This document shows positions 1 through 48,862 of a stretch of 64,000 nt of DNA, piece by piece. Numbering within the stretch: position 1 is the first letter of the stretch; each line of letters begins with the position of its first letter. A program made the position numbers and the translations under genes. The stretch is from positions 37,882,001-37,946,000 of the forward strand of contig CM097884.1 of NCBI GenBank assembly GCA_044892505.1. The letters run 5' to 3'. The stretch is from Schmidtea nova (Eukaryota). A model generated the notes under the pieces. The model ran no database searches and was not told the origin of the DNA. It saw only the letters and a list, made by a program, of their open reading frames with translations.

Positions 1-88
1 TAGATGGAATTAGTGTTTCACGATTCTTTTTAATAACTTTTCTAAGTTTTGATTTCTTTGGATGTTTGGATCGTGCTTTAAGTAACAT
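1..88 (-). CDS. 5' part of Polinton basic ORF downstream of the ATPase (runs off window)
   Basis: ATG at 88 gives MLLKARSKHPKKSKLRKVIKKNRETLIPS; homologous starts follow the ATPase copies at 3177 (MFLKSSARQLKLSKLRK) and 45431 (MILKVRIQYPKLS). Confidence 0.6.
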   Translation of the reverse strand, partial: MLLKARSKHPKKSKLRKVIKKNRETLIPS

Positions 89-108: not shown

Positions 109-732
109 TTAACTTTGTTTATAAACCATTGCTCCTTCTTTGTTAAAAATATCAGTTCTAACACGTAATTCATCACTAAATTGTTGAGTAAAATCGAGAA
201 AAATATATCCATGTGGGACTTTAGTTGCATCTTGAAATGCATTGATCAAAAAATTCCGATTATTAGGGTAAGCCTGTCTTGCAAGAAAATCGATAACGGT
301 AGCATCTCTAGGATTTTTAAAAATAACTAGATATTGGACATTCAAATTTCGAGTTCGATGACTACCACCCTGATGAAATAAATTCTGAGTAATAAAAATA
401 ACTGTAACTCCTTTATGTCTAGTAATTTTTGTGAATAAATTATTGAAATCCTTCTCTTTATTTGCTTCTTGATACAAATCATCAATAATAATTACATCAC
501 CACTTCGTAATCTAGACGACCAGTTTTTATCGAATCCTTTTATTATAGTCATTTTAATCTTACAGAATTGATCTTGAGTCATTCCATGTTCATCATCAGC
601 TCCCCTATGCCAATAAATTTTGTTAAATTTTGAATTTAATAATTTTGATTGTAATAATTTACAAACAAATAAAGTTTTTCCACTTCCACTTGGACCGACA
701 ATTTGATAAACTGCATCATTTCTTAACTCCAT
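109..732 (-). CDS. Polinton/Maverick A32/FtsK-like genome packaging ATPase (intact)
   Basis: Walker A GPSGSGKT, Walker B IIIDD, arginine-finger TRH, ITQNLF, and C-terminal PHGYIFLDF...RVRTDIF typical of Polinton ATPases; first ATG at 732; no introns. Confidence 0.9.
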   Translation of the reverse strand: MELRNDAVYQIVGPSGSGKTLFVCKLLQSKLLNSKFNKIYWHRGADDEHGMTQDQFCKIKMTIIKGFDKNWSSRLRSGDVIIIDDLYQEANKEKDFNNLFTKITRHKGVTVIFITQNLFHQGGSHRTRNLNVQYLVIFKNPRDATVIDFLARQAYPNNRNFLINAFQDATKVPHGYIFLDFTQQFSDELRVRTDIFNKEGAMVYKQS

Positions 733-828
733 TTTCAAAATATTAAGAGTTTATGGATATTGTTTATATTTGTTTTAATTAATTGATATACTTTTACAAA
801 ATATATTTAAAAAATAATCAGTCTTATA
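733..828. promoter_or_regulatory. Putative bidirectional promoter between ATPase and TBP-like gene
   Basis: 96-nt divergent spacer; 22-mer TATTGTTTATATTTGTTTTAAT (758-779) is identical at 3842-3863 in a diverged copy; it reads TATAAA on the minus strand ~30 nt before the ATPase ATG. Confidence 0.5.
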
Positions 829-1299
829 ATGTTAAGCAACATAAATTACAAAGGAAAATGTTCTGTTTCTCATATGAAATTTCCAAATGGTAAGCCACAG
901 CAGATTGTAGATAGGAAAGGTAAGTATCCTATAATATTTTTCAAGTCAGGTAAATGTAGAATAATGGGATGTAAACAACCTCTTAAAGATCAAGATTTAT
1001 TATATGAAATAAGAGATTTACAAATACAATCGATTACAGTTACTACAGATATTGGAAAATGTGTCAATTTACATGAATTGTCACAAAATCTCTCATGTTC
1101 TTATGAGCCAGAAATATTCCCGGCATTGAGATATATAAAGTATAATCCTTTATGTGTAAACGTATTCAACAGTGGTAAAGTTGTTATACTCGGTATAAAA
1201 ACGCTAAACTATCATGATTTGGTTGAAGAAATAATTAACGATATCAAATCGGTTATTGATGACGTAGAATTCTTGAAATTCTTGTTACTTGTTACGTAA
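829..1299 (+). CDS. TATA-binding protein (TBP)-like protein, minimal two-repeat core, Polinton-encoded (intact)
   Basis: Repeat 1 SNIN...IIFFKSGKCRIMGCK and repeat 2 IQSITVTTD...SYEPEIFPAL...VNVFNSGKVVILGIK match TBP signatures QNIV...LIFSSGKMVCTGAK and IQNMV...SYEPELFPGL...LIFVSGKVVLTGAK; 156 aa, intronless. Confidence 0.85.
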   Translation: MLSNINYKGKCSVSHMKFPNGKPQQIVDRKGKYPIIFFKSGKCRIMGCKQPLKDQDLLYEIRDLQIQSITVTTDIGKCVNLHELSQNLSCSYEPEIFPALRYIKYNPLCVNVFNSGKVVILGIKTLNYHDLVEEIINDIKSVIDDVEFLKFLLLVT

Positions 1300-1339
1300 T
1301 AAAAGATGTTATATACTTTTTAAAATAATATTTAATTTT

Positions 1340-2239: not shown

Positions 2240-2628
2240 TTAAATATTTTACATCATGAACAATTTTATTTACCAACCAATCAAAATCTGAGAACAACTA
2301 TTTTTCTGCTAGCGAATATATTTAAACACAATGGTTTATAAGGTTCAAGTCTCAATGCAAGGAATATTTCTGGTTCATATACACATTTTTTTCTTTGATA
2401 AATAATGCAAATTAATTCTTTGTTTGATTTCAAACAAACATCTTTAAAATTATAATAATGCTTTCCAAAGGTTTTTAACATCCCATTATTCGACATTTCT
2501 TTGTTTTGAAAAATATTATTGTATAATTATCTTTTTTATCTATTTTGTTGATTTTTTCCTGTTGGAAATTTCATGTTGCGTATAATTTTCATAGAAACTC
2601 GCTCATTGTAATTAATATTTACGAGCAA
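2240..2628 (-). pseudogene. TBP-like gene copy 2 (frameshifted)
   Basis: LLVNINYN...MKFPTGK...YTIIFFKTKKCRIMGC* then VYEPEIFLALRLEPYKPLCLNIFASRKIVVL. Confidence 0.8.
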
Positions 2629-2689: not shown

Positions 2690-3177
2690 CCTAAAACAAA
2701 TATTTATTTTAAAACAATACTGTGGTAAACCCTTCTTGTTGTTTCTATACAATTTTACGCATTTGATTTTGATTTTATCTATTTACTAGTTATAACAGTG
2801 GTTTTTGTATTTGTTCAAACAATTTTATTTGATTTACTGATGTTAATTTCACCTTGGGCAACTTCAAGTATAACATCAAGTCAATGACATAATTGGGAAA
2901 TGATTGTAAAATTCTCGTTACTTTTGAACTGAAGATTTTAACAATACAATAAAAATGGAAAGCTACGATGATTTGAAGTTTTTATTACTTTTCCAACTTT
3001 CTTTGGTTTCAGTTTTAAATTGCGTGAAATAAGATTCATTACTTAAAAATTTTCTGTTAATAATTTTTTCGAAGGTGTGAAAATGGTTTTAGATGGAATT
3101 ATTGTTTTACAATTTTTTTGCAGGATTTTTCTAAGTTTTGATAACTTTAATTGTCTGGCACTGGATTTAAGAAACAT
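2690..3177 (-). pseudogene. Polinton basic ORF copy (decayed)
   Basis: Starts MFLKSSARQLKLSKLRKILQKN..IIPS, ends near KQQEGF; parallels 45431-45925 (KQKGRFIAALLP). Confidence 0.5.
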
Positions 3178-3197
3178 GATTGATGACAAACATAATA

Positions 3198-3818
3198 TTA
3201 ACTTTGTTTATAAATTATTTTACTTTCATTATTGAAAATATCGGTTTTTACTCTTTAAGAATCTGTACATTGTTGAGTAAAATCAAGAAAAATATATCCA
3301 TAGGGGTTTGAGTTTCATCTTGAAATGCATTGATTAGGAAATTACGGTTGTTAGTGTATGTCTGTCTTGCAAGGAAATCAATAAGTTGCATTTCTAATAT
3401 TTTTGACAACAACTAAATATTAAACATTTAGGTTACGTGTTTGATAAGCTCCACCTTGATGAAACAGACTTTGAGTTATAAAAATAACTGTGACACCTTT
3501 ATGTCTTAATATTTTTGTGAATAAATTATTAAGGTCTTTTTCCTTATTTGTTTCCTGATAAAGATCATCAATAATAATTTCATCACCTTGCTGTAATCTA
3601 GATGACCAGTTTTTATCAAAACCCTTTATTATTTTCATTTTTATCTTATAAAATTGCTCTTGAGTCATTCCATGGTTATCATCAGCTATTCTATGCCAAT
3701 GAAGTTTATTGAATTTAGACTTGAACATTTTAAATTGTAATAATTTACAAACAAATAAAGTTTTCTTACTTCCAACAGGACCAACAATTTGATAAACTGC
3801 ATCATTTCTTAATTCAAT
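3198..3818 (-). pseudogene. Packaging ATPase copy 2 (mutated Walker A, stops, frameshift)
   Basis: ELRNDAVYQIVGPVGSKKT...IIIDDLYQE...ILRHKGVTVIFITQ, colinear with 109-732 through YKQS*. Confidence 0.85.
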
Positions 3819-3910
3819 TTTCAATATTATTGAAATAATATTATTGTTTATATTTGTTTTAATAATTTTTATCATAGTTCAAAAATAATTTGAAAACCTT
3901 TCATTAAATA

Positions 3911-4080
3911 TTGTTAAGCAACATAAATTTCAAGGGAAAAGGTTCAGTATCTCATTTACAATTTCCACGGAAAAGCCACAACGAATTGTTCATAGAAGAG
4001 AAAAATATCCAATAATACTTTTTAAGACTGGTAAGTGTCGAATTATGAGATGTCAGAAACCTATCAAAGTATGGGATTTT
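3911..4080 (+). pseudogene. TBP-like gene copy 3 (5' half, truncated)
   Basis: LSNINFKGKGSVSHLQFP/KPQRIVHRREKYPIILFKTGKCRIMRCQKP, head-to-head with ATPase copy 2. Confidence 0.8.
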
Positions 4081-4222
4081 ATTTAGTGGATATACTCCAA
4101 TAAATTCGTTACCCTATAACTGTTTTCGAATTCGATTAACATAAATAAAACTAGATTAATAAATTTATTGGATAAATAAATAAACTTACTCCATGACAAT
4201 TTGCTGACTTTGACTAATTCAT

Positions 4223-4663
4223 CTATACCAAAACTGTTCGATTTGCAGTAATTTGAATTTCATTTTCAAAATCTCCATATATTATTAATTGTAATGGTTC
4301 TTCAATGGCTTTAGCGAACTTTATATTTAATATCAAATTTCCATTTTGAGGTAATTGACTTTGAAAAATAAAGAATGTAAAGAAAGAGTATTTGTTTTTA
4401 AAATCAGCAAGAGTTATACCACAATTCAAATTCTTATCTAATATTCCATATTTTTGACCATTGACTGCATTTATGTAGTACAAAAATTATCATTTTCGAA
4501 ATCTCGAGTACATGTTTCTCTATAATTAGTGTTTTCGATATCGATAGGGAAGTAACATCGAACTTGATTCAGTATATGACCCATTGTATTGAATTTCACT
4601 TTGAAATGCGACCAGAATGAAATTAGGCATTTTTCGGTCTCCGAATATTTGTTCTATGTAGAA
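4223..4663 (-). pseudogene. Polinton major capsid protein (double jelly-roll), C-terminal fragment
   Basis: FYIEQIFGDRKMPNFILVAFQSEIQYNGSY...GNLILNIKFAKAIEEPLQLIIYGDFENEIQITANRTV resembles the Polinton MCP C-terminus (G.L.L...FA....IVY.EF.N.I.I...R.V). Confidence 0.75.
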
Positions 4664-7600
4664 TAGGGTTGTCCTTAGACCAATGGTAATATTTTTTTCT
4701 CACAATTGGATGTCTCCCACCCTTTTAAAATGTTCCATTTGATGCCATAAGATACTGTGCAAATTTTTTTAATGATCAGATAATGTTTAGAGGTCGCCCA
4801 ACAGCTCACAATTTATTAAAATGACCAAAAAATTTGACTTGAGCATAGTATAGTATTTTTATTACTAAACTGAAATTGGTAACGTTTTATTATGTTATTA
4901 AATGACTAGGAAATATGAAACTCCGTAATGTACAGAATCTATTGTTAAGATTTATTTATAGGAATAAATGTTCTAGACTGTCAGTGTCAGTCGGTCCAAC
5001 CAAAGACGATGTCCGCACTCCGCATTCCGCAACTAAGTCAATGTAATAACGACTTCTGACAGGTTGCATACTGACGACGATGGTCTGCCACAACTTGCAG
5101 CAGAAACTGAAACTGGTCCTCATCGTATGTGATACACTTGTTTAGCTCCTGAACAAGGGCAACTCCACGTTCTGCATTATCATTGGTGACTAGTAGCTTA
5201 GACACGATCAACATGCCATCTGTGTACTCCTGTCGAGTTTCCCAAGTGTCAGGATCGTAATTCAAGAAGTCTTGAGAAATATGGAGCTTATCAAAGAATT
5301 CCTGAGATCTGACAGTTATGAAATCCTCCAAACTGTAGTTGCATGCACTGCTTGCAGACATTGTGATGCGTTTCAGACCTTTTGGTAGAAGTACTTTGTC
5401 GACGGCATCCTTGCTACAGTAATTCAGTGCTTTCACCATTTGACGTTTTGTATCGACCGGTACATCGGGATCGAAGAAGGCAAGACCCACTAAATCTTCC
5501 GACAAATACCAAAGATGATGCTCAAGTTTTTTGGATGTTGCGATAGAGATTTTCTCATTGTAACGCTTGTAATTGTGCAAATCTTGAAGCAGTTGCAGAT
5601 CATTTCGAGGCGCACTGGAAGCCAGTGGTGCAGTGAACCAGGCCTTGAGGTATATAACCACTGCAAAGATGCACATGTGGAGAAGTCCTTTCTCCTCGAA
5701 CGATGTGAGCTTGAATTGTGAGCGAAACATCCACACTTTGAGTGAGTAGATCACTTTCGACATCCATCTCGCATGGTGCATTGCACCAGGTGCCATAAAA
5801 TGAATCCCACGATGGGGTAAGCCACCAAGAAATATGATAGATAATTCAATGAATTCTCTGTAGTCTTCTCGGACGTTGTCACGAAGCAGCTGCCTGTGTG
5901 CAAATTCCATTACTTCGTTCTTCACCACGTCAGGTATTTCATTCAAATTAGCTCCCGTCTGGTAGTTACTGTGGTCGACGATTGACCACTTTTGTTGAAA
6001 TCTCTTGAACAGAAGGACTTCAGGAGCAGATGATGGTGCAAGACTTACTGTAAATGCGGCTCCTGCCAACAGTTCCATAATGTGGTGGCGACAGGCAAAG
6101 TGTAGTAAGTCCTTGCCTAGCTTCTGTTCTATCAGAACACAGGCACCGTTGTGGATACCAGTGTTGGAACTAGTTGTATCAAAGCACAATCCTACCACAC
6201 GATCCTGCACATTCCACTCATTCAGTGCCTGGACCACTGCAGATGACTGGTTCTCACCTGTTCCACCAGACATCTTGTTCACCTTCAATAGCTGACACAC
6301 CCCAAAGCCGGTCACAATTATAGGGAGGCGATCAACGTGATCCTTCCCAGTGAGATCGACCATTAGTTTGCCATCCCAATGTACCACCAAAGGAACATCA
6401 CTAGACAAATCTTCCTTTAATGCAGCTGCCATTTCAGCTCTGTATTTCTCGCGGTGACGCTTTATAGAACTCCGATTTATATTGAGTTCATCAATATCAT
6501 GCCCAAGGCTCTGAGCTGCCGCAGCAATGACAAACGTAGCCTTTCTGTCACTCAACTTGGTACGATCCAAGGCAGCTGCTAACTTTGGGGTAATCACATT
6601 TGTTGCTGCTCTGCTTTTCTTACGGCGAGGTGATGAGAACTCAGCAGGCTTATCTGTGTCCGATTCAGGTTTATTGTCATCTTCACTACTGCTGCCAAAT
6701 CCTGCAACCATTGTGCTAACGGATGCCTCGCTTTCTGCTCTTTCACGTCTCTTCCTCTCCAAGTTTATTCTGACTGCTTTTCTCTCTTCCTTTTCAGCTA
6801 ATGCTCTATCAACTAATCCAAGGTAACCTCGTCGTCCTGGTTCTCGCTGTGCCAGCAGAAATTCTCTATCTTCCTCGATCTTCATAGTCGTTAGGGCGTC
6901 GGCATGTGCAATGTCAAAAAGATTCTTCATTTTGGCGCAAAACTCATCTTCTCTGGCAACATGGAGCTCTGTCTTGCGATCTTTGTGCTTTTTTAGCTGT
7001 GTCCAATCTTTGAATAGTTGCTCCAGCTTGGTGATTGCATGGTCTTTGCGACATGTCGGTATGCGGGCCTTGTTCCAAATTCCAGTCACCTGTTCGATCA
7101 CATGTGCTGATGCCTGTCGTGTCTGCAGACCATGGGTTAGGTGGTGATGGAAAAACAAACCCAATGCTTCACCATTTGATGCAAGTCTGAGAGTAGAAAG
7201 CACAGTAGTGGGTTGACCCAGTATATAAACTGCAGTTTGACTTCGTGTTGTTATATCAAATTCTTCACTACATCACAACAACAACATATCATACAATACA
7301 ATATTACACTAACACTGGTGTGTCACTGTGTCTACATGTGGAATGTTTACTTTCTAGCCTAAAAAATGGCAAATAGTGCATAATAACTGAATGTTCTGAA
7401 TGGCAAAGCAGCAGCTAAAACATACAACACATGAAAAAGTTTACTCACCAAAAAGATGACGCCATTTCATAGAAAACTTAATAAAACTGCAAAATCCTAA
7501 TCAGACAGTATTATTGATCAACAAAGATTATTTATTAGAGGTTAAATTAATTGTTTGGGATCAACTAACTAACAGAACTGACCAAAATAAGTAGTGAGAA

Positions 7601-7788: not shown

Positions 7789-8043
7789 ATGTAGAAAGAT
7801 GATGCACCTTTCCCAATAACAAATTGTACGATTTCTTTAGTTTTCATTTGATAAATTGCATATTTCTAATTACGTCCAACTTGATGTCCAGCTAATACAG
7901 ATGGTTCAACACGAACACGACGAATAATTAATTTTGCATCAACTAATTGATATTTTGGAGCACCATGAATATAGTGATAATGCTGTATCAGATCGCTTCA
8001 GTTTGATGTAATGATTGACACCAGGGAGTAAATACTTCTCTGG
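7789..8043 (-). pseudogene. Polinton major capsid protein, middle fragment
   Basis: EKYLLPGVNHYIKLKRSDTA...KYQLVDAKLIIRRVRVEPSVLAGH...YQMKTKEIVQFVIGKG, continuous with 4663 once the transposon is removed. Confidence 0.75.
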
Positions 8044-12543: not shown

Positions 12544-12822
12544 TATGAAACATGAAATTGTTTTGTACAGGATCATCAGTAGCAGACAACTCCTTTTTAT
12601 CACCATTTAGCAACTTTTATTTTAACAAATAATAAAGTATCATTCAAATCCAAATATTCTGTTTGCGATTTGTTAATGTAAAATATCACATCATTTCTAC
12701 CATATGTAACGGAATTCACGGAATTCTTCAAATGACCATATTCAATAACAAATTTAGGTAATAGTCAGTCAAAGATACATGATTCAGATTTATCACAAAT
12801 CATTTTACAAATATAGTTCCAT
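12544..12822 (-). pseudogene. Polinton major capsid protein, N-terminal fragment
   Basis: ICDKSESCIFD*LLPKFVIEYGH...VIFYINKSQTEYLDLNDTLLFVKIKV...PVQNNFMFH resembles the MCP N-terminus (C.KSELDLF...IE.G...Y.DL..T.L.V..KI); ends at the 12543 terminus. Confidence 0.7.
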
Positions 12823-19989: not shown

Positions 19990-20282
19990 TCTATTTAGTT
20001 GGCGCAACAGGATTATCGATAGAAACATATTTAAAAAATAGTCAAGTTAATGAAGGAACGACAAAGCCAAAAATACTTAAACTTCATCGACAAATTTTCA
20101 ATTACAGTAATATTATTGAATCAATAATTGTTGGCGATTCCGATGTTCCACTATTAAAATCTATTTGAATTGAAAAATATGACCAGGATAATGTTGTGCA
20201 AATCACAATAGAAAATTCGATGTATTTATCCGTTTCAACTTTATGTATAAACAATATAGAAATAAAAATACACGATGACTCT
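19990..20282 (+). pseudogene. Polinton minor capsid protein (penton) fragment
   Basis: IFNYSNIIESIIVGDSDVPLLKSI*...SMYLSVSTLCINNIEIKIHDD resembles penton motif Y.DI.E..IVGD..APLLR...Y.PV....IEI.I.D. Confidence 0.7.
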
Positions 20283-20344
20283 CAATGGTCTCTCCGTAAA
20301 CGCTATTATTCAATAATTTATAGAAATCCCGATTTATCCTATTG

Positions 20345-21435
20345 AAGGATTCGTGTCGAAGTCAGGTATTTGTACTGATATAATTTTTCAGTATTTCTTT
20401 TTGTGTTTATTTTATTGCCTAATATATATTGACAACTTCCACTTAAAGGGCTATATATTATTTTAAAAGTCGCCAATGAATAACATAATTATTTATCGGA
20501 TGATGAGTTAATAATAATTAGGTACTGTTGAATTTCTTGGACAAATTTTCTCAGATGCGAATGGAAAATCATCTAATAAATCTTTAATGCTATTTGGTAT
20601 CACCAAGTCCACTTCCAAGGTGTATCCGTAAGATAATGATTTCAGTTTTGAACTAATTCAGTCAATCAAAATAGATATAAAATGGTGATTTCTTCGTAGC
20701 AGCTCTAAGTATTAAATAAATTAATAAATCAGTAACAAAATAAGCCTTTGCTGCAAAAATAATTTTCTCACTTAATAAAATTATTTTTGCAGCAAAGGCT
20801 TATTTTGTTATTTATTTATTAATTTACAAAATAGATAATAATTCTACTTCATTATATATCCACTCAAAACCCGCACATGGCAAGTTTTGGCCAAGTGCCC
20901 ATCCGTACAAGTTATTTATATCTATATAAAGCAATTATGTTTCATCATCTGTTACTGCGTGGTGTTTATTTACAAATGTGAGATCAGATTATGAAATACA
21001 ATGGGTAATATTTTTTTAATTTTTCGTTGTTGATTGCATTAATTACATGCAACTTCTAGATATTTGCCGGTGAAGTAATCATGGTCTCTCACTGTTTTTA
21101 GCATTGGCTTTTAACATGGGTAACAAGTGATTGCAGCACTAAAAGGTAAATTTTCTTCGTTTGATAAAAAATTTATTTGTTAATATCCTTTTCTATTATT
21201 CTAATCTCTAACAATATATTTTGAGATATTTTCAACTTTAACCAGAAATTTGTATACACAATCTGGTCCAATAAATTCCATGAATTTTGTTTGTCCTCTA
21301 AAATTATATACCAGTAACAGCCCCGCTGCTATGGGCAAATGTTTTTGGTGTTGTCTTTCATCCAGGGCAAAGCAACTTCGAAATCGGCATACATGACGAA
21401 TGGTGGGGTTACCACTTTTGACCTGTCATAGCAAG
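20345..21435 (-). pseudogene. Protein-primed DNA polymerase B (Polinton) fragments
   Basis: PFVMYADFE (~21400); LLYIDINNLYGWALGQNLP..GFEW (~20900); GYTLEVDLVIP...DDFPFASE and YVIHWRLLK (~20620-20470). Confidence 0.85.
20697..20826. mobile_element. Palindromic MITE inserted in pPolB remnant
   Basis: AACAAAATAAGCCTTTGCTGCAAAAATAATTTT ... AAAATTATTTTTGCAGCAAAGGCTTATTTTGTT; related copy at 50175-50287. Confidence 0.7.
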
Positions 21436-23044: not shown

Positions 23045-23275
23045 TTAACCAACTGTGAAAATAATTTTTAAGTCTTACAAAGTTCGGGAGATGTTCAGTA
23101 ATAAATCTGTGAGGCCATTTGGTCTGTGTTCTGATCTCGTATATAGTTTTACTTGTAATGAGTGTAATACTACATACACTGGAGAGACTGCCCGTCATCT
23201 CTGTACATGAGTTCAAGAGCATGCCAGAAAGAGCGGAAAGAGTAATATTCTTTAGCATAATAAGACATGCAAGTA
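23045..23275 (+). mobile_element. Penelope-like element GIY-YIG endonuclease fragment
   Basis: SDLVYSFTCNECNTTYTGETARHLCT*VQEH...SNIL*HNKTC matches VVY.F.C..C...YIG.T.R.L..R..EH. Confidence 0.75.
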
Positions 23276-23289
23276 AAGCATTAATATTG

Positions 23290-23731
23290 TGGTATTTGCA
23301 TGGTTCGCCTTCTCCATTGCTAATTGGATGACATTTGTCTTTGATATACGTAAATGCATTTGTTTACCCCGCAGGAAACAGACATCAAGATTTCGAATTG
23401 CCATCATAGCTTGTGGGTGAATTGCAAACAGCACCAAAGCCGTATTCTTTTTGTTATAGGTAATTGTAATACTTGTATTAACCATCATGATATTGTTTGC
23501 TTTGATGGTTTCCTCGTTATTTCGACCGTGTATCATTAGAGAGCGTATTAATCTCTTAACAGTTGGACATTGTGCTTTTCTAAATCGTTTTGTTTGATAG
23601 CGGCCAGCAGACTGGGGAATTAATTTTGCATATTTTCCACTATAATTAATGCAATCTGCCAATGACAGATCGACAGCGCGAACATCATCAGTACTCCATT
23701 TAATGAAAAGTTTAAAGTAAGACATATTCAC
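23290..23731 (-). pseudogene. Chimeric fragment: 40S ribosomal protein S5 (uS7) N-part fused to PTB/hnRNP L-like RRM fragment
   Basis: [11 protein letters not shown]...[16 protein letters not shown]...HGRNN (RPS5), then YNKKNTALV...QAMMAIRNL....LRGK...ISK (compare PTB RRM3 FNKKENALV...QAQLAMSHL...LHGK...LSK); intronless. Confidence 0.75.
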
Positions 23732-23842
23732 AGTTTAACAAAGAACACAAAATTATTTATATGAATAAATTCAACAATGCAAAACATATATTTTTAAATT
23801 TCAACAAAATTAAAACAAGCGTTTTTTTATCTTTTCCGTTTT

Positions 23843-24331
23843 TCATACAATTTGTAGGAATACTAAATGCAAATTCAATTTTATTAATAGAAATTGATCG
23901 TTAATTGATAAGTCGGTTTTTGGCAACCGGAAATCTTGACCGATGAAAACAAGAGTTGAAATGAGCAAGCTCCATGACAGTCCGTATTGATTGATTTCTG
24001 ATGCTGGCGAATAATCCTTTAATCGAGATTGATTGTGATCCAATGTATTGATTTGTAGATTTTTTGAGTTAGTCATTTCAGATTTGTCTGGATAGTATAT
24101 TAATATTGATCCAGTTGTTGACAAGCATCTTCCAGTTTGTACGGCTTCTTTACGCATTCCATCAGCGAAACATTTCTGCAATCTACTGAACTGGCAGTTG
24201 TTTCTTCTTTGAATATCAACTACACAATCTCCACTAGAGTAGAACTGATAATTGTTGTCATTTGATGAAAACGAGTCACTGTGAATGTCTTGGGTGAATG
24301 GGTATATCGAATCATTGTTAACGGCTTGCAT
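23843..24331 (-). pseudogene. Nuclear receptor (NR2-like) fragment: second zinc finger, T-box and start of LBD
   Basis: GDCVVDIQRRNNCQFSRLQKCFADGMRKEAVQTGR; DQFLLIK resembles LBD DQxxLL; first finger absent and zinc Cys lost. Confidence 0.75.
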
Positions 24332-24462
24332 TTGTTTTTTTTTGATCAGCGTGAAAAAGAAAATATGTAAATATTAAAACAACATCTATTTTACTCCATT
24401 TAATAATTAATTAATTTATAAAATTGAAAATTTAATCTAAGGCACTACACAATTTCTTTTTT

Positions 24463-24467
<5 letters not shown>

Positions 24468-24511
<44 letters not shown>
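24468..24511. repeat. (TA)n microsatellite
   Basis: Direct reading; similar tracts at ~25936-26001 and ~42261-42337. Confidence 0.95.
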
Positions 24512-24517
<6 letters not shown>

Positions 24518-25289
24518 ATACTCTTAATATATATTTAATTTATATTTATTATAAATATTATATTTAATTATATATTAATTATATCACCACAGATATTTCC
24601 AATTTCAAAATACTGTCTAGACTCTAGAGGTTTTAAAAATTATTATTAACGTGTGAATTATGAGGCTTTGATTCTAAAATCATTTATTCCTAAAATAGAC
24701 ATACAAAATGCAATATCTACATACATTTTCAGAGTTTTTAATTATTTTTACTATGGTTAATAAAAGTTTTATTGGATTGTGCGCATGTGATTATGTAATC
24801 ACTAATAAGCGTATAAACAAGATTAAATTTTATTTCTCTGAAATTGTGTAAAGTCTTATGGTGACAGCTGAACTGTCGAAACATATTGTAATAATATTGT
24901 TTATAAATGGTGTTCTTTTATTTATTTGAATAAATTGTCATTTTTATTTAATAGTTTTTATAATAATAAGTAGATAGAAGTACACTTTCGATGACTCATC
25001 TTTGCAGATGAGAATATCCATCATCATTTTTATTCAAAATTTTTTTTCAAAACATGACAATTTCAATTTTTTCAGAAATCAAATAATATGCATTTTTTAT
25101 ATATTAATATATGGAATTGTTGTGTATTACTCATGCACATGTATTGCACCTTTATGGTATTNNNNNNNNNNNNNNNNNNNNNNNNNNNNNNNNNNNNNNN
25201 NNNNNNNNNNNNNNNNNNNNNNNNNNNNNNNNNNNNNNNNNNNNNNNNNNNNNNNNNNNNNNNNNNNNNNNNNNNNNNNNNNNNNNNNN

Positions 25290-25389
25290 ATTTAAACTAT
25301 TTTGATTTCAGTAATTTACAAACAAACTTGGTTTATTCTCTACCACAAGGGCCCACAATTTGATATACAGCATAATTTCTTAATTCCAT
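25290..25389 (-). pseudogene. Packaging ATPase copy 3 (5' fragment next to N gap)
   Basis: MELRNYAVYQIVGPCGRE*TKFVCKLLKSK. Confidence 0.8.
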
Positions 25390-25487
25390 TTTTAAATTTA
25401 AAAAAGATAGATATAGTGTGTATTAATCAATTAAATGGACTTCATTAAAACATGTATTTATAGTTTGGTTTGATAATTAATTTTTAT

Positions 25488-25900
25488 ATGTTGTCAAATA
25501 TAAATTATATAGGTAAATTAGATGTTTCCAAAATGATTTTTCAAGTGAAAAGCCACAACAAATAGTTGATAGAACTGGAAAATATACAATCATATTTTTC
25601 AAATCTGGCAAATGTAGAATAATGGGTTGCAAGAACCCTATTAATACAAATGACTTTTAATATCAATGATATTCAAATCTAATCAATTATAGTCACTATT
25701 AACATCTGTTTTAATATTAATATATATACAAACTGTCACTAAAATCTAATTGTATGTATGAACCATAACTTTTTCTCGCTTAAAGGCTTTTACACCATAA
25801 CCCTCTATGTGTCAATGTTTTTTTCTAGTGGTAAGGTAGTTGTGTTAAGACTTAAAAATCTAGAGTACCAATTATTTATAAATAATTTTATCATTGAAAC
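25488..25900 (+). pseudogene. TBP-like gene copy 4 (full length, frameshifts and stops)
   Basis: MLSNINYIGK...KPQQIVDRTGKYTIIFFKSGKCRIMGCK...CMYEP*LFLA*RLLHHNPLCVN...SSGKVVVL. Confidence 0.85.
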
Positions 25901-25930
25901 CACCGGATTGTTCGAACAATGATTGGCTCA

Positions 25931-26003
<73 letters not shown>

Positions 26004-26033
26004 AAAGTTATTTTATCTATTTATTTTTTTAAA

Positions 26034-26419
26034 ATGGAACTAATAGATAAATACGGTAAATTAAGCATTATGCATGTTTCATTATTATTATTAGAATTTT
26101 TAGGATTTTCATTGGAGCTATTAATGAATAAGATGGACGATTTATACCCGGAATTCAGAATATCATTAGCTTATACAACTTCGAATTGGTGGCGTACAAA
26201 CTCCGAGGTCGCACTGGAATCGACCTGTTTCAAATCGTCCTGGAACACTGGGCTAGTTTAGATGAAGAGATCCCAAATGTGACAAAACCATATCAGTGCC
26301 CATACAGAATGACGAAATACTATTATTTTGTTTTACAAAATAAATTGAAAACCTTTGATTTTTTAAGTACAATATATATTTTTATTATGTTTTTTTCTTT
26401 TATTGTCTTTAGTAGGTAA
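26034..26419 (+). pseudogene. ORF-X copy downstream of TBP-like gene (frameshifted)
   Basis: MELIDKYGKL...LLLEFLGFSLELLMNKMDDLYPEFRISLAY then LVAYKLRGRTGIDL; aligns with 44023-44253. Confidence 0.5.
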
Positions 26420-26691
26420 CTTAGAAATATTAATTAAATAAATATATTAATTAAATAAGAAAGTTAACATACTAAATAATAATATATAACAATACACATG
26501 CATGACTAACAAAGTCACTTGCATTACAAATGCATGACACTTGCAGTACATGACTAACAAAGACTGCAGTACATATGCATGTTTAACAAAGTCATTGCAA
26601 AACACATGCCGCAATTTGATTGGACAAAGACGAGTATAAAATAAAGATCTCGATGAAATTCGTCATAACTTTAAAATGAAATTACAAAGTT

Positions 26692-27453
26692 TCAAGCGTG
26701 TTCAATTGTTTTATATTTATAAAATAAATTTTTTGAAAAACCGATAGAATTCAAATTTTCGTTTCCAATAAAGCTGACAAAGACTGAATTTTCATATCTA
26801 CGCTCGTCAAATTCTAATGAAGATAATCGAACAAAGACCGAATCGAATAAATTTTTTATTTCATCAGCAAAGAATTCATCTGTCTTACTGTCAAAGATAA
26901 CACTATTCAACCATTTGAAATTTATTTTTTTTACACATTGCATTAACTTGACAAAACCGAAGGCAAAATTATGATTGCCATACACAGCCGCGTCGATATC
27001 AAGTTCATTCAAACTTTCTGGCACATGATCTCCTTGAATCATTGTACTAATCCTGAACGGGCCTAAACAATTACAAGAGAACAGCGTTAATGATTCACAA
27101 TTCTTTCGAGATTCTCGAAGAGCAGTACAAAACCGAGCCGCACCGGCTTTCGGTTTATTAAGATAACCTTCGACGTTGTAGACATCATTGAAATGTAATA
27201 AGATAAATTCTGAAGTCATCAATTCTGAAGCTAAATTGTCTTCAACCATTTCATTGTACATGGAAATAGCAGAATATTTTATGTTAATACATCTTCCCTG
27301 TTCATATTTTCTTGTATTTCTAATTCTAGTTTCATCGGCTTTGGCACTTGCTGTAGCACAAGCTTCACTCACCAGTGAATCTGTTGAGTTAGACTTTCCG
27401 CGATCAACATGAACTATGGCATTCATATTTCGGATGGTTACCATTTTGTCCAT
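26692..27453 (-). pseudogene. Chimeric ORF: eEF2 N-terminal fragment fused in frame to 5'-nucleotidase (calcineurin-like) N-terminal fragment
   Basis: MDK..IRNM..IVHVDRGKS..TDSLV...ETR...TRKYEQGRCINIK (eEF2 with degenerate G1 motif), then LLHFNDVYNVE...GAARF...YGNHNFAFG (5'-NT HFND/GNHEFDFG); intronless and open. Confidence 0.8.
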
Positions 27454-44307: not shown

Positions 44308-44753
44308 TTATCAACAGAATAAACTTTTTATATCAGAAATTAATTAATCAACAAACATTTGATATTCTAGACTTTTGATACCTAAAATAACAATATTTTC
44401 ATTTGAAAATATGTTTACACACTTTGGATTATATTTCATATATCGTAAAGCAGGGAGCAATTCAGGTTCAAATATACATGTACATTTTTGTGCTAAATTA
44501 TACAAATCCTTCATCAAATCAAGATTTTATGTTATTGTGATTGATTGAAGTTCAATATTTTCGAATTTTTGTGGCAAATGTTCCATTTCAAATCGGTTTG
44601 TTTACAACATTCTATACGGCATTTCCCTGATCTAACAAATATAATATATTTCCCAGATCAATCCACAAATTGTTGTGGCTTTTTATCGAAAATTTTATTT
44701 TGGAAATAATTTCTTGTGATTCTTTAGCCTTGTAATTAATATTTAATCAACAT
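44308..44753 (-). pseudogene. TBP-like gene copy 5 (decayed)
   Basis: NINYKAK...KKPQQFVD*SGKY..FVRSGKCRI...LQSITIT...CIFEPELLPALRYMKYNPKCVNIFSN.NIVILGIK. Confidence 0.85.
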
Positions 44754-44838
44754 TTCTAAAGGTCTTGTCTGTTAAATTCAAATATATAATTGTTTAGATG
44801 TTATAAACAAAATTAAAACAATTAATCAAACTTATCAT

Positions 44839-45412
44839 ATGGAATTAAAAAATGATGCAATATATCAAATTACTGGTCCCAGTGGTAGTGGATAAACATT
44901 ATTTGTTTGTAAATTACTAGTCTAAATTATTCAAATCAAAATTTGATATGGGTTAATACAATCAAAGTTTTATAATTTTAAAAATATCAGGATTATCAAT
45001 GGATTTGATAAAAATTGGTCAAGTCAATTGAACTAAGATGATGTTATCGTCATTGATGATTAGTATCATAAAGCAAATGAAGAAAAGGATTTTAATAGTT
45101 TATTTTACAAATATTAGTAGACATGTTGGTGTTACAATTATATTTATAATTCAAAACTTATTTAATCAAGGAGGATCACATCGAGCACGTAATTTGAACT
45201 TTCAAAAATCCAAGAGACTCCACGGTTATAGATTATATTGAAAGACAATCTTATCTTAATAATCGAAATTTTCAATAAATGCATTTCAAGATGCTACTAA
45301 AGAAACTTGTGGATAGTTATTTTTAGATTTTAATCAATAATGTCTAGATTAATTACGAGCAAGAACTGATATTTTCAACAAAGATAGAACCATAATTTAT
45401 AAACAAAGTTAA
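44839..45412 (+). pseudogene. Packaging ATPase copy 4 (decayed)
   Basis: MELKNDAIYQITGPSGSG*TLFVCKLL...ISRHVGVTIIFIIQNLFNQGGSHR...RTDIFNK...YKQS*. Confidence 0.85.
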
Positions 45413-45430
45413 ATTAATAATCAAATAATC

Positions 45431-45925
45431 ATGATTTTAAAAGTTCGTATACAATATCCAAAATTGTCAAATAATCAAAAACATTAGCTGTTCCAAATAC
45501 TAGTTATACACCATCGAAAACACTTTTGACAGCAAATTTTCCTCAAATGAATCTAGTTTTTCATAATCAAAACCAGTAAAATCTTCAAAACAAGCAAAGA
45601 ATCATAGTTGTTTTGCATATTTTAATACATTACTAAAGGCACCAAATATGTCAATAAGACTATTTAACAGCTTTTTCCTGATTTTCTTATTAATGATTTA
45701 CTTGATATAATAGTTAATGTAGTCAAAGGTGAGGTTATTTTTAGTGAAGCTAAAAAACATCTATTAGAAAAACGCAAAAGATCATAACTTGATCTTGTAA
45801 ACACAAAAATTCAGAATCCCATGCGAAAAATAATATTTAAACAAAAAGGAAGGTTTATTGCAGCTTTATTACCACTGGAATGATCTTTGCTAGGTAACCG
45901 AGGTTTATTAGGAAAACAGCCATAA
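45431..45925 (+). pseudogene. Polinton basic ORF copy (decayed)
   Basis: Follows the ATPase; C-terminal RKIIFKQKGRFIAALLPL resembles the Q(K/R)GGF..LL motif of small Polinton virion proteins. Confidence 0.5.
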
Positions 45926-45986
45926 ACAATGGGTGCTAATCCTTCATTACCTAATCTTAATTTAAATCCTAAATCTTGTTATTACA

Positions 45987-46336
45987 ATGGCGAAGATATG
46001 GACAAACCTGAAAGACTCAGTCGGTTTCGGTAGAGTCGAAAAACTAAAGAAAAGAGTCTCGTGTTCCAAAAAAGAGACGCACAACTGGTTATCAGGACAA
46101 CTGACAAAACAAATCAATTTTGAAAAGATTTCAAACAAGAGCATATGAAACAGCCTATATCAGCGATTTGTGGCAAATGAACATGATGGAAATGAGTCCA
46201 TATTAAAATATTAACAAAGTTTAAAAGTATATTTTGACATGTATTGACTTCTTCATTCATTTTGCACGTGCGATTCTAACCAAGACAAAGTCTATTAATG
46301 AAATGGCTAAAGCTATAAAATTAATGTTTGCAGATA
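45987..46336 (+). pseudogene. Polinton RVE integrase 5' fragment
   Basis: GFGRVEKL...NWLSGQ...ISDLWQMNMMEM...KYILTCIDFF..FARAI..KTKS..EMAKA matches SFGG.EKL...WL..Q...WQ.DL.DM...KYIL..ID.FSK.A.A.PLK.K. Confidence 0.8.
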
Positions 46337-48862
46337 TATATGCAATCTATTGTAAGAAATATGGGGTATTAAAAAACTAAATTGTGGTATTAATCTTGTT
46401 GATCTTAAAAAGTAGTATCCATTATTTTCCTTTCTTTTGGCTCCTGATTTTGATTTTGTTAGTCGCAACGAAGCTGACGGTCATCTTATTTTGAAAATCA
46501 AAAGTCATGTTTTGTTTACAATTTTTAATAATAATGAGTTGTTTAATTATTTAATTGAATTGAATTCCAATTATTATTTAAACAAACTTTCCATTAATCA
46601 AAATAAACATTTATTTAAATTTCATTTAATTTTTTTTCAAAATAAAATTTCCTAAATTACAATAAAAATTTTATAAAAAATTTCATAAATTTTTATAAAT
46701 TTTTACAAATTTCTCAATTGTTATTTTAATCAATGGACTGCATATCACAGATTTAAATCAACATCAATCACCACAAAGTGGTAGATTATTGATTTAACCA
46801 ATGAACCTTCAAGTAAAGTGTTTTCTTAATAAATTACTTATCATTTTGTTTTATAAACATGTTAATAATGTTTATCTAATAATTGCCTTGTTAAAAAATA
46901 AAAAGAATGAAGCATAAACCAATTTTATCAAAAATACAATCTTTTGATGAATAATATCTTTTCCTAAAGAGAAAAGTCACAAAAATAGAATTAGTGCTCG
47001 ATCGTTTAATTTTTAGTGTAAGTATNNNNNNNNNNNNNNNNNNNNNNNNNNNNNNNNNNNNNNNNNNNNNNNNNNNNNNNNNNNNNNNNNNNNNNNNNNN
47101 NNNNNNNNNNNNNNNNNNNNNNNNNNNNNNNNNNNNNNNNNNNNNNNNNNNNNNNNNNNNNNNNNNNNNNNNNNNNNNNNNNNNNNNNNNNNNNNNNNNN
47201 NNNNNNNNNNNNNNNNNNNNNNNNNNNNNNNNNNNNNNNNNNNNNNNNNNNNNNNNNNNNNNNNNNNNNNNNNNNNNNNNNNNNNNNNNNNNNNNNNNNN
47301 NNNNNNNNNNNNNNNNNNNNNNNNNNNNNNNNTTTTTTGAATTAATTTTTATCATCCTGCTATGTCCTTTTTTTTCCTTTTCCTTCTTTATATTTTATTT
47401 TATTTTTTATTCTTCTTTTATTTTCTGTTTTTTGCATTTTTATTTGATAAATATACAAGTTAAACTTATTGATTATTAGTTGCAATAATTTTAACTAGTT
47501 TTTTCTTTCTTTTAATTCTTTTCATTTTTCTTGAATATTATTTTGTAAAGTTTTGATGCTTAATTGTCTAGAACAAGCTATAAATCTAGTAAGTTCATCA
47601 AGGCAAAGAGTTATAAATCAAGAAATGTAAAGATTTATTTGGGGTGTCTTTGGAGAAAACAAAATTTACGAGAGGAGTCTCTGAGAAAAGAATTGTAGGG
47701 ACTCTAAAAATTTGTTAAAAGGGGGTTTTCTAAAGTTTCACAATTTTCGGGTAGCCCGGGGGTTTGGACCAGTGGGCTCACATCCACTACTATCAGTTGC
47801 ACTATATGTTCCAATTTAAACGGTAATCTGAAGACTAAAAATTACCTGGAAAGGTCTGATTTAAGAAGATGAAGTCGCTAACAAGCGCATATGTTGACTG
47901 TGTTTTTGGATGCCAGTGACATTATTTGTATTAATTAGTATGAAAGTGGGTTTTGAATTTACAGCTGAGACTATTTCAGTACCGTCTAGCTTACTTGTGT
48001 CTAAGACGGGTCTGACTACAAACGTAAATAATAAAAAATGTTATTTACAACCCATCTATATTTTGGAATCACTTTAGAAATATTTTGTGTCATAGCAGAA
48101 TGTCATTAAGATTTCATATGACAGGAATTAGGACATGTTTGTGAAGTTGTCAGTCCGGAAACTTTGTCAAGAATCGCAACTCAGAGATATAGAGATAGCT
48201 TTTATATTTATAAATTTATTTTCATAATATGTTCGTATTAGAAATTTGTTTTATTATATTCATAAAGAATCAAGGAAATTATTGACTGCTCATCAAAGAA
48301 ATAACATAATATATTGGTTAATAATTGTTGAATAATAAATAAATATTTATAAAATCAATAATAAATGTCAAAATTTCAGTTTGACTTATAATCATAAATT
48401 TTATATTTTTTTATATTGCCGACAAATAATTTCAAAATTCTTTGATTTTCAGAAACGGCATAAATAAATTGACCAATTTTTATATATTTGTTTAACACTT
48501 GACAAAGACTAACAAATTTAAAATAATGATCAAAATATTATTAGAAAAAACCGAACGGAAAATAAATTGAAATTTCTTTGTATTCAATTAAAATGGTGAG
48601 AAATATTGAAACATTTTACCCAATGAAATCAAATATAAATTATAAAAATTGTCATTTGTCATCATTTGTTCAGTGCTCATTATTTATGTATGATGCAGAT
48701 TATAAAATAAAAGTATAAAATAACAATTGATTGAACATAAAATTTAATTTCATGTATTTTAATTTAACAACATCTACACAAAATATGGCATCCGTCATAT
48801 ATGCAAATAAAATCTGAATCAGAGAAATCTGTGATTAATATGACACCGATTTTTCACTTTAG

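Follow-up and report, generated by a model that had tools for sequence, protein, structure and literature searches.

The TATA-binding protein (TBP) and TFIIB are a textbook, DNA-dependent pair, and canonical TBP carries four intercalating phenylalanines (F99, F116, F190, and F207; yeast numbering is used throughout). TBP lays its N-terminal half on the 3' half of the TATA box, a stretch that disfavours C, while I194, V203, and L205 are the three sites changed in TBPm3, an altered-specificity yeast mutant that accepts TGTA (PMC1636458). Helix H2 of the N-lobe bears a basic patch that binds TFIIA, Mot1, Brf1, and TAF1 (PMC7221094). KSHV ORF24, one of the viral TBP mimics of beta- and gammaherpesviruses, recognises TATTWAA, and its residues at V122, T124, and L205 are polar (PMC12529657, Table 1). 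A gene labelled 'TBP' also appears in the legend to Fig. 5 of Starrett 2021 (PMC8502044), in a MELD/adintovirus-like element.

The window analysed here is a 64,000-nt stretch of the Schmidtea nova genome (GCA_044892505.1, contig CM097884.1, positions 37,882,001 to 37,946,000, forward strand). Near its left end lies an intact gene for a 156-aa protein, hereafter mini-TBP (Table 1). The protein matches the Pfam TBP profile with 59 bits (cut-off 22.9) over repeat 2 only, and all 35 of its 35 PDB sequence matches are TBPs or TBP fusions. An AlphaFold2 model built from 84 sequences (pLDDT 97) forms a two-repeat saddle, residues 1-147 of which match yeast TBP (1tbp, chain 66-240) with a Z-score of 12.4 and an rmsd of 2.8 over 145 aligned residues; BFVD structure matches of the model include viral TBP folds. 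In 22 of 23 pairs dN/dS lies between 0.09 and 0.33, the remaining pair being saturated. The ORF is a genuine TBP-like gene, intact and under purifying selection. Rather than being a host paralogue, it belongs to a high-copy Polinton/Maverick element.

Table 1. Features of the window that belong to the mini-TBP element or to its decayed relatives (window coordinates).
Feature	Position	Strand	Basis
Start of 181-aa basic element gene	1..88	-	
A32-type packaging ATPase, head-to-head with the TBP gene	109..732	-	Pfam Pox_A32, 26.8 bits (cut-off 22.8)
TATAAACA box within the last codons of the ATPase (YKQ), 34 nt before the next gene	116..123	-	
Putative late promoter of the ATPase: TATAAACA box, 35 nt upstream of its ATG; second ATAAAC at 749-754	761..768	-	
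Polinton-encoded mini-TBP, intact, 156 aa	829..1299	+	Pfam TBP, AlphaFold2 model, fold match
Likely poly(A) signal, a canonical AATAAA that overlaps the stop codon of TBP	1298..1303	+	Sequence
Broken older TBP copy (frameshifts, stops)	2290..2628	-	
Older decayed copy: remnants of 181-aa gene and ATPase (-) with box 33 nt upstream; broken, 3'-truncated TBP from 3911 (+)	2727..4083		
Decayed copy: ATPase stub (-), broken TBP from 25488 (+)	25318..25892		
Decayed copy: broken TBP (-, start near 44753), ATPase (+, box 36 nt upstream), remnants of 181-aa gene, integrase, and capsid	44320..46502		

Terminal inverted repeats, AG..CT ends, and a 6-bp target duplication are defining features of Polinton/Maverick elements. 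The left end of the window copy and the right end of another copy share an inverted match of 994 nt at 99.5% identity, the element ends in AG..CT, and 6-bp target duplications flank both of the two independent copies for which both ends are available. The integrase (Pfam rve, 34.8 bits, cut-off 32.6), the A32 ATPase, and an adenain protease all exceed their Pfam cut-offs, with the integrase-linked chromodomain falling under its own. The element carrying mini-TBP is a Polinton/Maverick. To the left of the window (L021 and L022) it continues with the integrase and chromodomain, ORFs of 340, 130, and 406 aa, the protease, a 139-aa gene, a 1320-aa ORF, and the terminal repeat. The window copy breaks off at 1304; other copies run about 1.9 kb further to the right terminus. 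From motifs and layout, we take the 406-aa and 340-aa ORFs to be the major and minor capsid genes and the 1320-aa ORF, which has B-family-like polymerase motifs, to encode a protein-primed family B polymerase (pPolB). The two putative capsid ORFs are conserved in related loci and gave no Pfam, PHROG, or PDB match, and the 1320-aa ORF matched no polymerase profile. No RNA polymerase gene was found in the element, and no TFIIB match among the 10 element ORFs scanned. In the genome (G000), 150 of 19,457 candidate matches were scored, and all 150 share the protein sequence at 100% identity, giving at least 150 copies; 20 of 20 fetched copies differ by 1-2 nt. Planarian Polintons are PIWI-silenced (PMC8532177), which suggests where element transcripts might be found.

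Two further small genes often adjoin TBP. The 139-aa gene (L021:4928-5344, minus strand) and its 14 homologues share invariant Cys/His residues and a D/E-rich N-terminal motif, which we take to resemble that of a DEDD exonuclease; the gene had no Pfam or PDB match. The 147-aa gene (L022:7198-7641, minus strand; L040:896-1339, plus strand) lies inside the terminal inverted repeat of about 1 kb and adjoins TBP in many loci; it matched no profile, and by residue pattern we presume a possible SSB. In three copies a short intron-like stretch with GT-AG ends interrupts the integrase frame (L021:8424-9475, minus strand) at one shared position, and the protease frame and many 147-aa homologues look intron-led. 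The genome also holds palindromic derivatives of the element (G000:C3:87126190-87139806, spanning L023-L025, and G000:C1:338377724-338389030, spanning L032-L033, with similar ones at L029-L030 and L035-L036). Each consists of two inverted arms 98-99.6% alike, every arm having TBP, ATPase, and the right terminus; the polymerase region has no match of at least 90% in them. As two of the derivatives are flanked by 6-bp target duplications, they likely integrated as units. One of them is included in a 28-kb duplication of 99.7% identity (G000:C3:87120001-87150000 and 87223001-87253000).

Four more TBP copies, at 2628, 3911, 25488, and 44753, are all frameshifted or interrupted by stops, that at 3911 being also 3'-truncated. 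The first-pass annotation of the window had sorted the copies into two N-terminal subtypes, short (829, 3911, and 25488) and longer (2628 and 44753). That division does not hold up well, because every copy except the one at 829 is broken; the length difference amounts to a loop indel of a few residues, and across the family the N69-F116 span ranges from 33 to 46 residues. Scattered pieces of the putative genes for capsid, minor capsid, and polymerase lie at 4226-4687, 7791-8037, 12545-12803, and 19995-21419. The decayed copy at 44.3-46.5 kb apparently sits inside a host gene whose MORN-repeat exons (MORN by Pfam) span 32041-57385 on the plus strand, presumably a junctophilin-like gene. An intact 630-aa ORF at 5038-6930 (minus strand) had no Pfam match and looks like the transposase of a DNA transposon. 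Fragments that resemble a C4 zinc finger and a GTP_EFTU domain in Pfam at 23252-27453 (minus strand) are probably decayed or captured gene pieces.

Residues were placed by sequence alignment. Yeast numbers were transferred through a host TBP exon (L041:1510-1860), positions 1-116 of which correspond to 1rm1_A 68-183 without offset, and were carried on for repeat 2 from the next host exon. Column counts refer to the 84-row family alignment, with the rows having a residue at the site as denominator. An alignment by eye had earlier suggested that the acidic YEPE stirrup, F190, F207, and F116 are kept while the F99 stirrup is altered and N159 has become Ser. These calls were right, since the 84-row counts and the F99-site alignments agree with them. 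The TFIIB stirrup is retained at E186 (E93, 79/84 rows) and E188 (E95, 83/84), with Asp or another residue replacing E186 in several distant relatives. F190 (F97) and F207 (F113) are present in all 84 rows and F116 (F38) in all 77, N69 (N4) is present in 72 of 73, and P191 is also retained. Ser (S68) occupies the N159 site in 83/84 rows. The F99 site is Pro or a gap, never aromatic, in three MAFFT modes and in hhalign, and three of the four canonical intercalating phenylalanines are therefore present. The S3 strand keeps a single register across the three MAFFT runs, P23 being Pro in 74 of 75 rows, and in a model of a longer form of the protein the stirrup at the F99 site is a two-residue K-P turn. 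F18, conserved in 66/74 rows, has no firm place in yeast numbering; considered as the missing phenylalanine, it was placed at F99 by none of the sequence alignments.

The helices had been described as shortened, which understates the change: in repeat 1 of the mini-TBP model no helix reaches four residues, H1 and H2 both being absent. The N69-F116 span is 34 residues against 47 in host TBP, and the G125-N159 span is 21 against 34, 13 shorter and without H2. The DNA face is changed as well. Arg occupies the I194 site (R101, 83/84 rows), Cys the V203 site (C109, 84/84), Asn the L205 site (N111, 83/84), Arg the V122 site (R44, 76/78), and Met the T124 site (M46, 83/83), and these residues are near-invariant down to 37% identity. 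Mini-TBP is a divergent member of the TBP fold that fails several canonical TBP features. The long form (L107, L111, L114, L118-L127, and L140) shares the K-P turn and the altered DNA face, and its model retains H1 and H2 (Z 17.5 to 1ytb). Because it has the altered face yet keeps the helices, the face may have changed before the repeat-1 helices were lost, an order that our quick tree is too weakly rooted to prove.

The first-pass annotation had read such changes as altered, possibly non-TATA specificity of the TRF2/TBPL1 kind, or as the mark of a TFIIB decoy. In doing so it left the Polinton setting unmentioned and took decayed copies for diversified subtypes. Altered specificity is supported by a DNA face that is changed alike throughout the family and by the matching non-canonical box described below; TRF2/TBPL1 serves as an analogy only. 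A decoy would sequester host TFIIB (or Brf), or compete at host promoters, and so damp host transcription. The stirrup kept while F99, N159, and both repeat-1 helices were lost would suit that role, as would the very many element copies, yet near-invariant DNA-face residues are needless in a decoy that does not bind DNA, which makes a pure decoy less likely, and the box would be left unexplained. We regard this explanation as distinctly improbable and favour a mini-TBP that would bind DNA with altered specificity.

Homologues of mini-TBP number 83, at 37-73% identity, and 61 clusters were found at E<1e-30 among 50%-identity representatives. Another element gene accompanies TBP at 57 of 80 metagenome loci; the remaining 23 are short contigs, five with a cellular-type TBP. 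A quick tree splits 32 family rows from 14 others, cellular rows and the host paralogues among them, with an SH-aLRT of 99. The host (L041-L047) encodes a canonical TBP, another TBP present at two near-identical sites, of which one is broken, and a pair of divergent paralogues (L043 and L044), which group with eukaryotic TBP in the same tree. The host also retains its own TFIIB, split into exons. PF00382 gives only 6 matches in the genome, so there is no high-copy viral TFIIB. Viral contigs scanned with TBP, ATPase, and putative capsid sequences and their alignments yielded no relative. Five contigs filed in bacterial MAGs (L139, L140, L141, L142, and L143) carry Polinton genes, likely through binning contamination.

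Upstream regions (110 nt before called starts) were taken from 75 metagenome loci, the five cellular-type ones omitted, and from nine stretches of the S. nova genome, with near-duplicates removed. An unbiased scan of 86 upstreams of the ATPase, putative capsids, integrase, and three other genes returned ATAAAC as the top enriched 6-mer. It occurs in sense orientation in 75/86 and in antisense in 3/86, against 8.7 expected from dinucleotide shuffles, counts that derive from related loci and so are not independent, some starts being auto-called and possibly off. By class, the box precedes the ATPase in 23/24 (mode 35 nt before the ATG), the putative major capsid gene (MCP) in 10/10, the putative minor capsid gene in 10/11, the 130-aa gene in 6/6, the 181-aa gene in 8/10, the integrase in 9/13, and the 139-aa gene in 9/12, and is missing from 11 of the 86. 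In the window element seven genes have it and the protease frame does not. Before TBP genes it is at background (4/52, 3.4 expected), as it is before the 147-aa gene (1/17), the polymerase (0/3), and a 90-aa gene (0/3). TBP genes are preceded by a canonical TATA box in 29/52 upstreams (13.9 expected), and an Inr-like TCA lies at +29/30 after 19 of 43 canonical TATA boxes from the TBP and 147-aa upstreams; the window TBP gene has no canonical TATA match within 110 nt upstream.

The extended box reads (T/C)ATAAAC(A). Position 1 is T in 52/83 sites, giving TATAAAC, and divides by clade, with T in 47/59 sites of short-form elements and C in 18/24 of long-form elements; this is one clade split, not independent support. 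The C at position 7 stands out among single-base variants. Where the box is embedded in coding sequence, the YKQ terminus is encoded as TAT AAA CAA in 17 of 17 ATPases ending YKQ, compared with a background use of TAT and AAA of about 70% each. A pattern search for a box embedded in the minor capsid gene matched nothing, and the chromodomain-embedded site is represented by only five rows.

TATAAA and CATAAA are weak poly(A) variants, and at many sites the motif falls where the upstream gene ends, as a variant poly(A) or termination signal of that gene would. The motif is not AATAAA, since A precedes it in only 3/83 sites. The box at 761-768 lies between the divergent ATPase and TBP genes, where no same-strand gene ends, and the TBP gene itself ends in a canonical AATAAA (1298-1303), making a poly(A) role highly doubtful. 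The Forkhead consensus is RYAAAYA, which ATAAACA fits, and a host Forkhead site might in principle drive the element genes. Against this, GTAAAC occurs in 4/86 upstreams compared with 75 for ATAAAC, and the strict orientation (3 antisense) and the peak about 35 nt before the ATG are those of a core promoter, so that we consider a Forkhead site very improbable.

A core-promoter box might instead be read by host TBP/TFIID (as CATAAACA and TATAAACA), leaving the viral TBP to other work such as binding the termini or origin. Because TATAAACA differs little from an ordinary TATA box, the T form, which is the majority form at position 1, might be readable by host TBP. The C that predominates there in long-form elements argues against such reading, as in normal TBP residue P191 is proposed to admit T alone (PMC1636458), and so does the distinctive C at position 7. 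Furthermore, among control contigs found by ATPase alone, the box precedes 0/13 upstreams in four TBP-less contigs and 3/3 in one TBP-bearing contig, a small control in which the four TBP-less contigs are partial (TBP could lie beyond their ends), two come from one organism, and three have 51-56% GC. The TBP genes also use a different, canonical box. Taken together, these points make host TBP an unlikely reader. In two of the TBP-less contigs (L139 and L142), TATAAG precedes some genes. A second ATPase subfamily in the genome was considered as a further TBP-less control and set aside, all 10 of its 10 loci carrying TBP.

We therefore return to the element's own TBP, and propose that a viral TBP, made early, probably recognises (T/C)ATAAAC(A) and brings host TFIIB and Pol II to the late genes. 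This reading of the sequences starts from the observed element context, fold, residue pattern, and purifying selection, and from a box with strand, position, and gene-class bias. Mini-TBP would be made early from an ordinary host-type promoter. Its remodelled saddle would then read the box, with the C-A at the 3' end facing the altered N-terminal half; the remodelled half of the protein corresponds to the half of the box with C at position 7. The retained acidic stirrup would recruit host TFIIB. Loss of the repeat-1 helices would leave TFIIA, TAF1, Brf1, and the evictor Mot1/BTAF1 with no surface to dock on, and mini-TBP would escape these factors because H2, which carries their patch, is lost. 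Under this proposal, mini-TBP would prefer the (T/C)ATAAACA forms TATAAACA and CATAAACA over TATAAAAG, and transcription starts would fall about 25-32 nt downstream of the box. The label 'late' is presumptive, because the box also precedes the integrase and the 139-aa gene, neither of them obviously structural. More broadly, this Polinton clade may well run a self-contained early-to-late switch on one 150-residue TBP shed of its TFIIA, TAF, and Mot1 surfaces, with its own box and with TFIIB and Pol II supplied by the host.

A factor with a cognate 8-bp site makes the timing of Polinton virion genes, and the autonomy of animal Polintons as viruses, testable with one small protein. If the proposal is true, these elements would produce their virion proteins in the nucleus with no need of a helper giant virus, and the herpesvirus late-gene strategy would have been invented independently, keeping host TFIIB instead of replacing it. 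The protein and box would then rank as the smallest orthogonal Pol II core-promoter system in nature, and mini-TBP, with three phenylalanines and no repeat-1 helices, would amount to nature's own test of how little a TBP requires. Since one genome holds at least 150 intact copies, host transcription could also be affected by any expression of them.

In the literature searched, which excluded subscription journals, Repbase, and bioRxiv supplements, no description of the box was found, and no paper on a Polinton TBP beyond the legend in Starrett 2021. That element resembles ours in being a Polinton-type element with a TBP-like gene, which may or may not be of the same family; in the accessible text the legend is a label without residue or promoter analysis. 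The terms TBP and TATA do not occur in PMC11161782, PMC11131425, 10.64898/2026.10.13.758929, or 10.1101/2023.08.22.554363, nor does 'Polinton' in the available text of PMC7221094. A TBP in such elements was thus already labelled in 2021, and what is new here is the box before packaging, integrase, and putative virion genes.

Compared with cellular TBP (eukaryotic and archaeal, PF00352), mini-TBP keeps the two-repeat saddle and N69, F116, F190, P191, F207, E186, and E188. It differs in the Pro or deletion at F99 and in N159S, I194R, V203C, L205N, V122R, and T124M, in the subfamily lacking repeat-1 H1 and H2, in being encoded by an element, and in its separate branch in the quick tree (SH-aLRT 99). 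TRF2/TBPL1 is likewise a divergent TBP with likely non-TATA specificity, and is a cellular gene with Trp at the F116 site (PMC7221094), whereas mini-TBP has Phe there in all 77 rows and is set apart from the host paralogues in the quick tree. The TBPs of large dsDNA viruses share the viral TBP fold and the loss of the N-lobe regulatory signature, but their TFIIB-binding residues are described as having diverged in co-evolution with a viral TFIIB (PMC7221094); mini-TBP keeps both glutamates, and no TFIIB gene was detected in its element. By analogy, mini-TBP would work like the herpesvirus late-promoter TBP, yet it stands outside that family. KSHV ORF24 too has a viral TBP fold, a more polar DNA face, a late-gene TATA variant (TATTWAA), and host Pol II as its polymerase. 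As described in PMC12529657, however, it keeps all four phenylalanines, is without the acidic TFIIB residues, has additional Pol II-binding and C-terminal DNA-binding domains, and acts with five partner activators. Mini-TBP, by contrast, consists of the saddle alone, in 156 aa, and retains the TFIIB stirrup, and homology between the two is claimed only for the fold.
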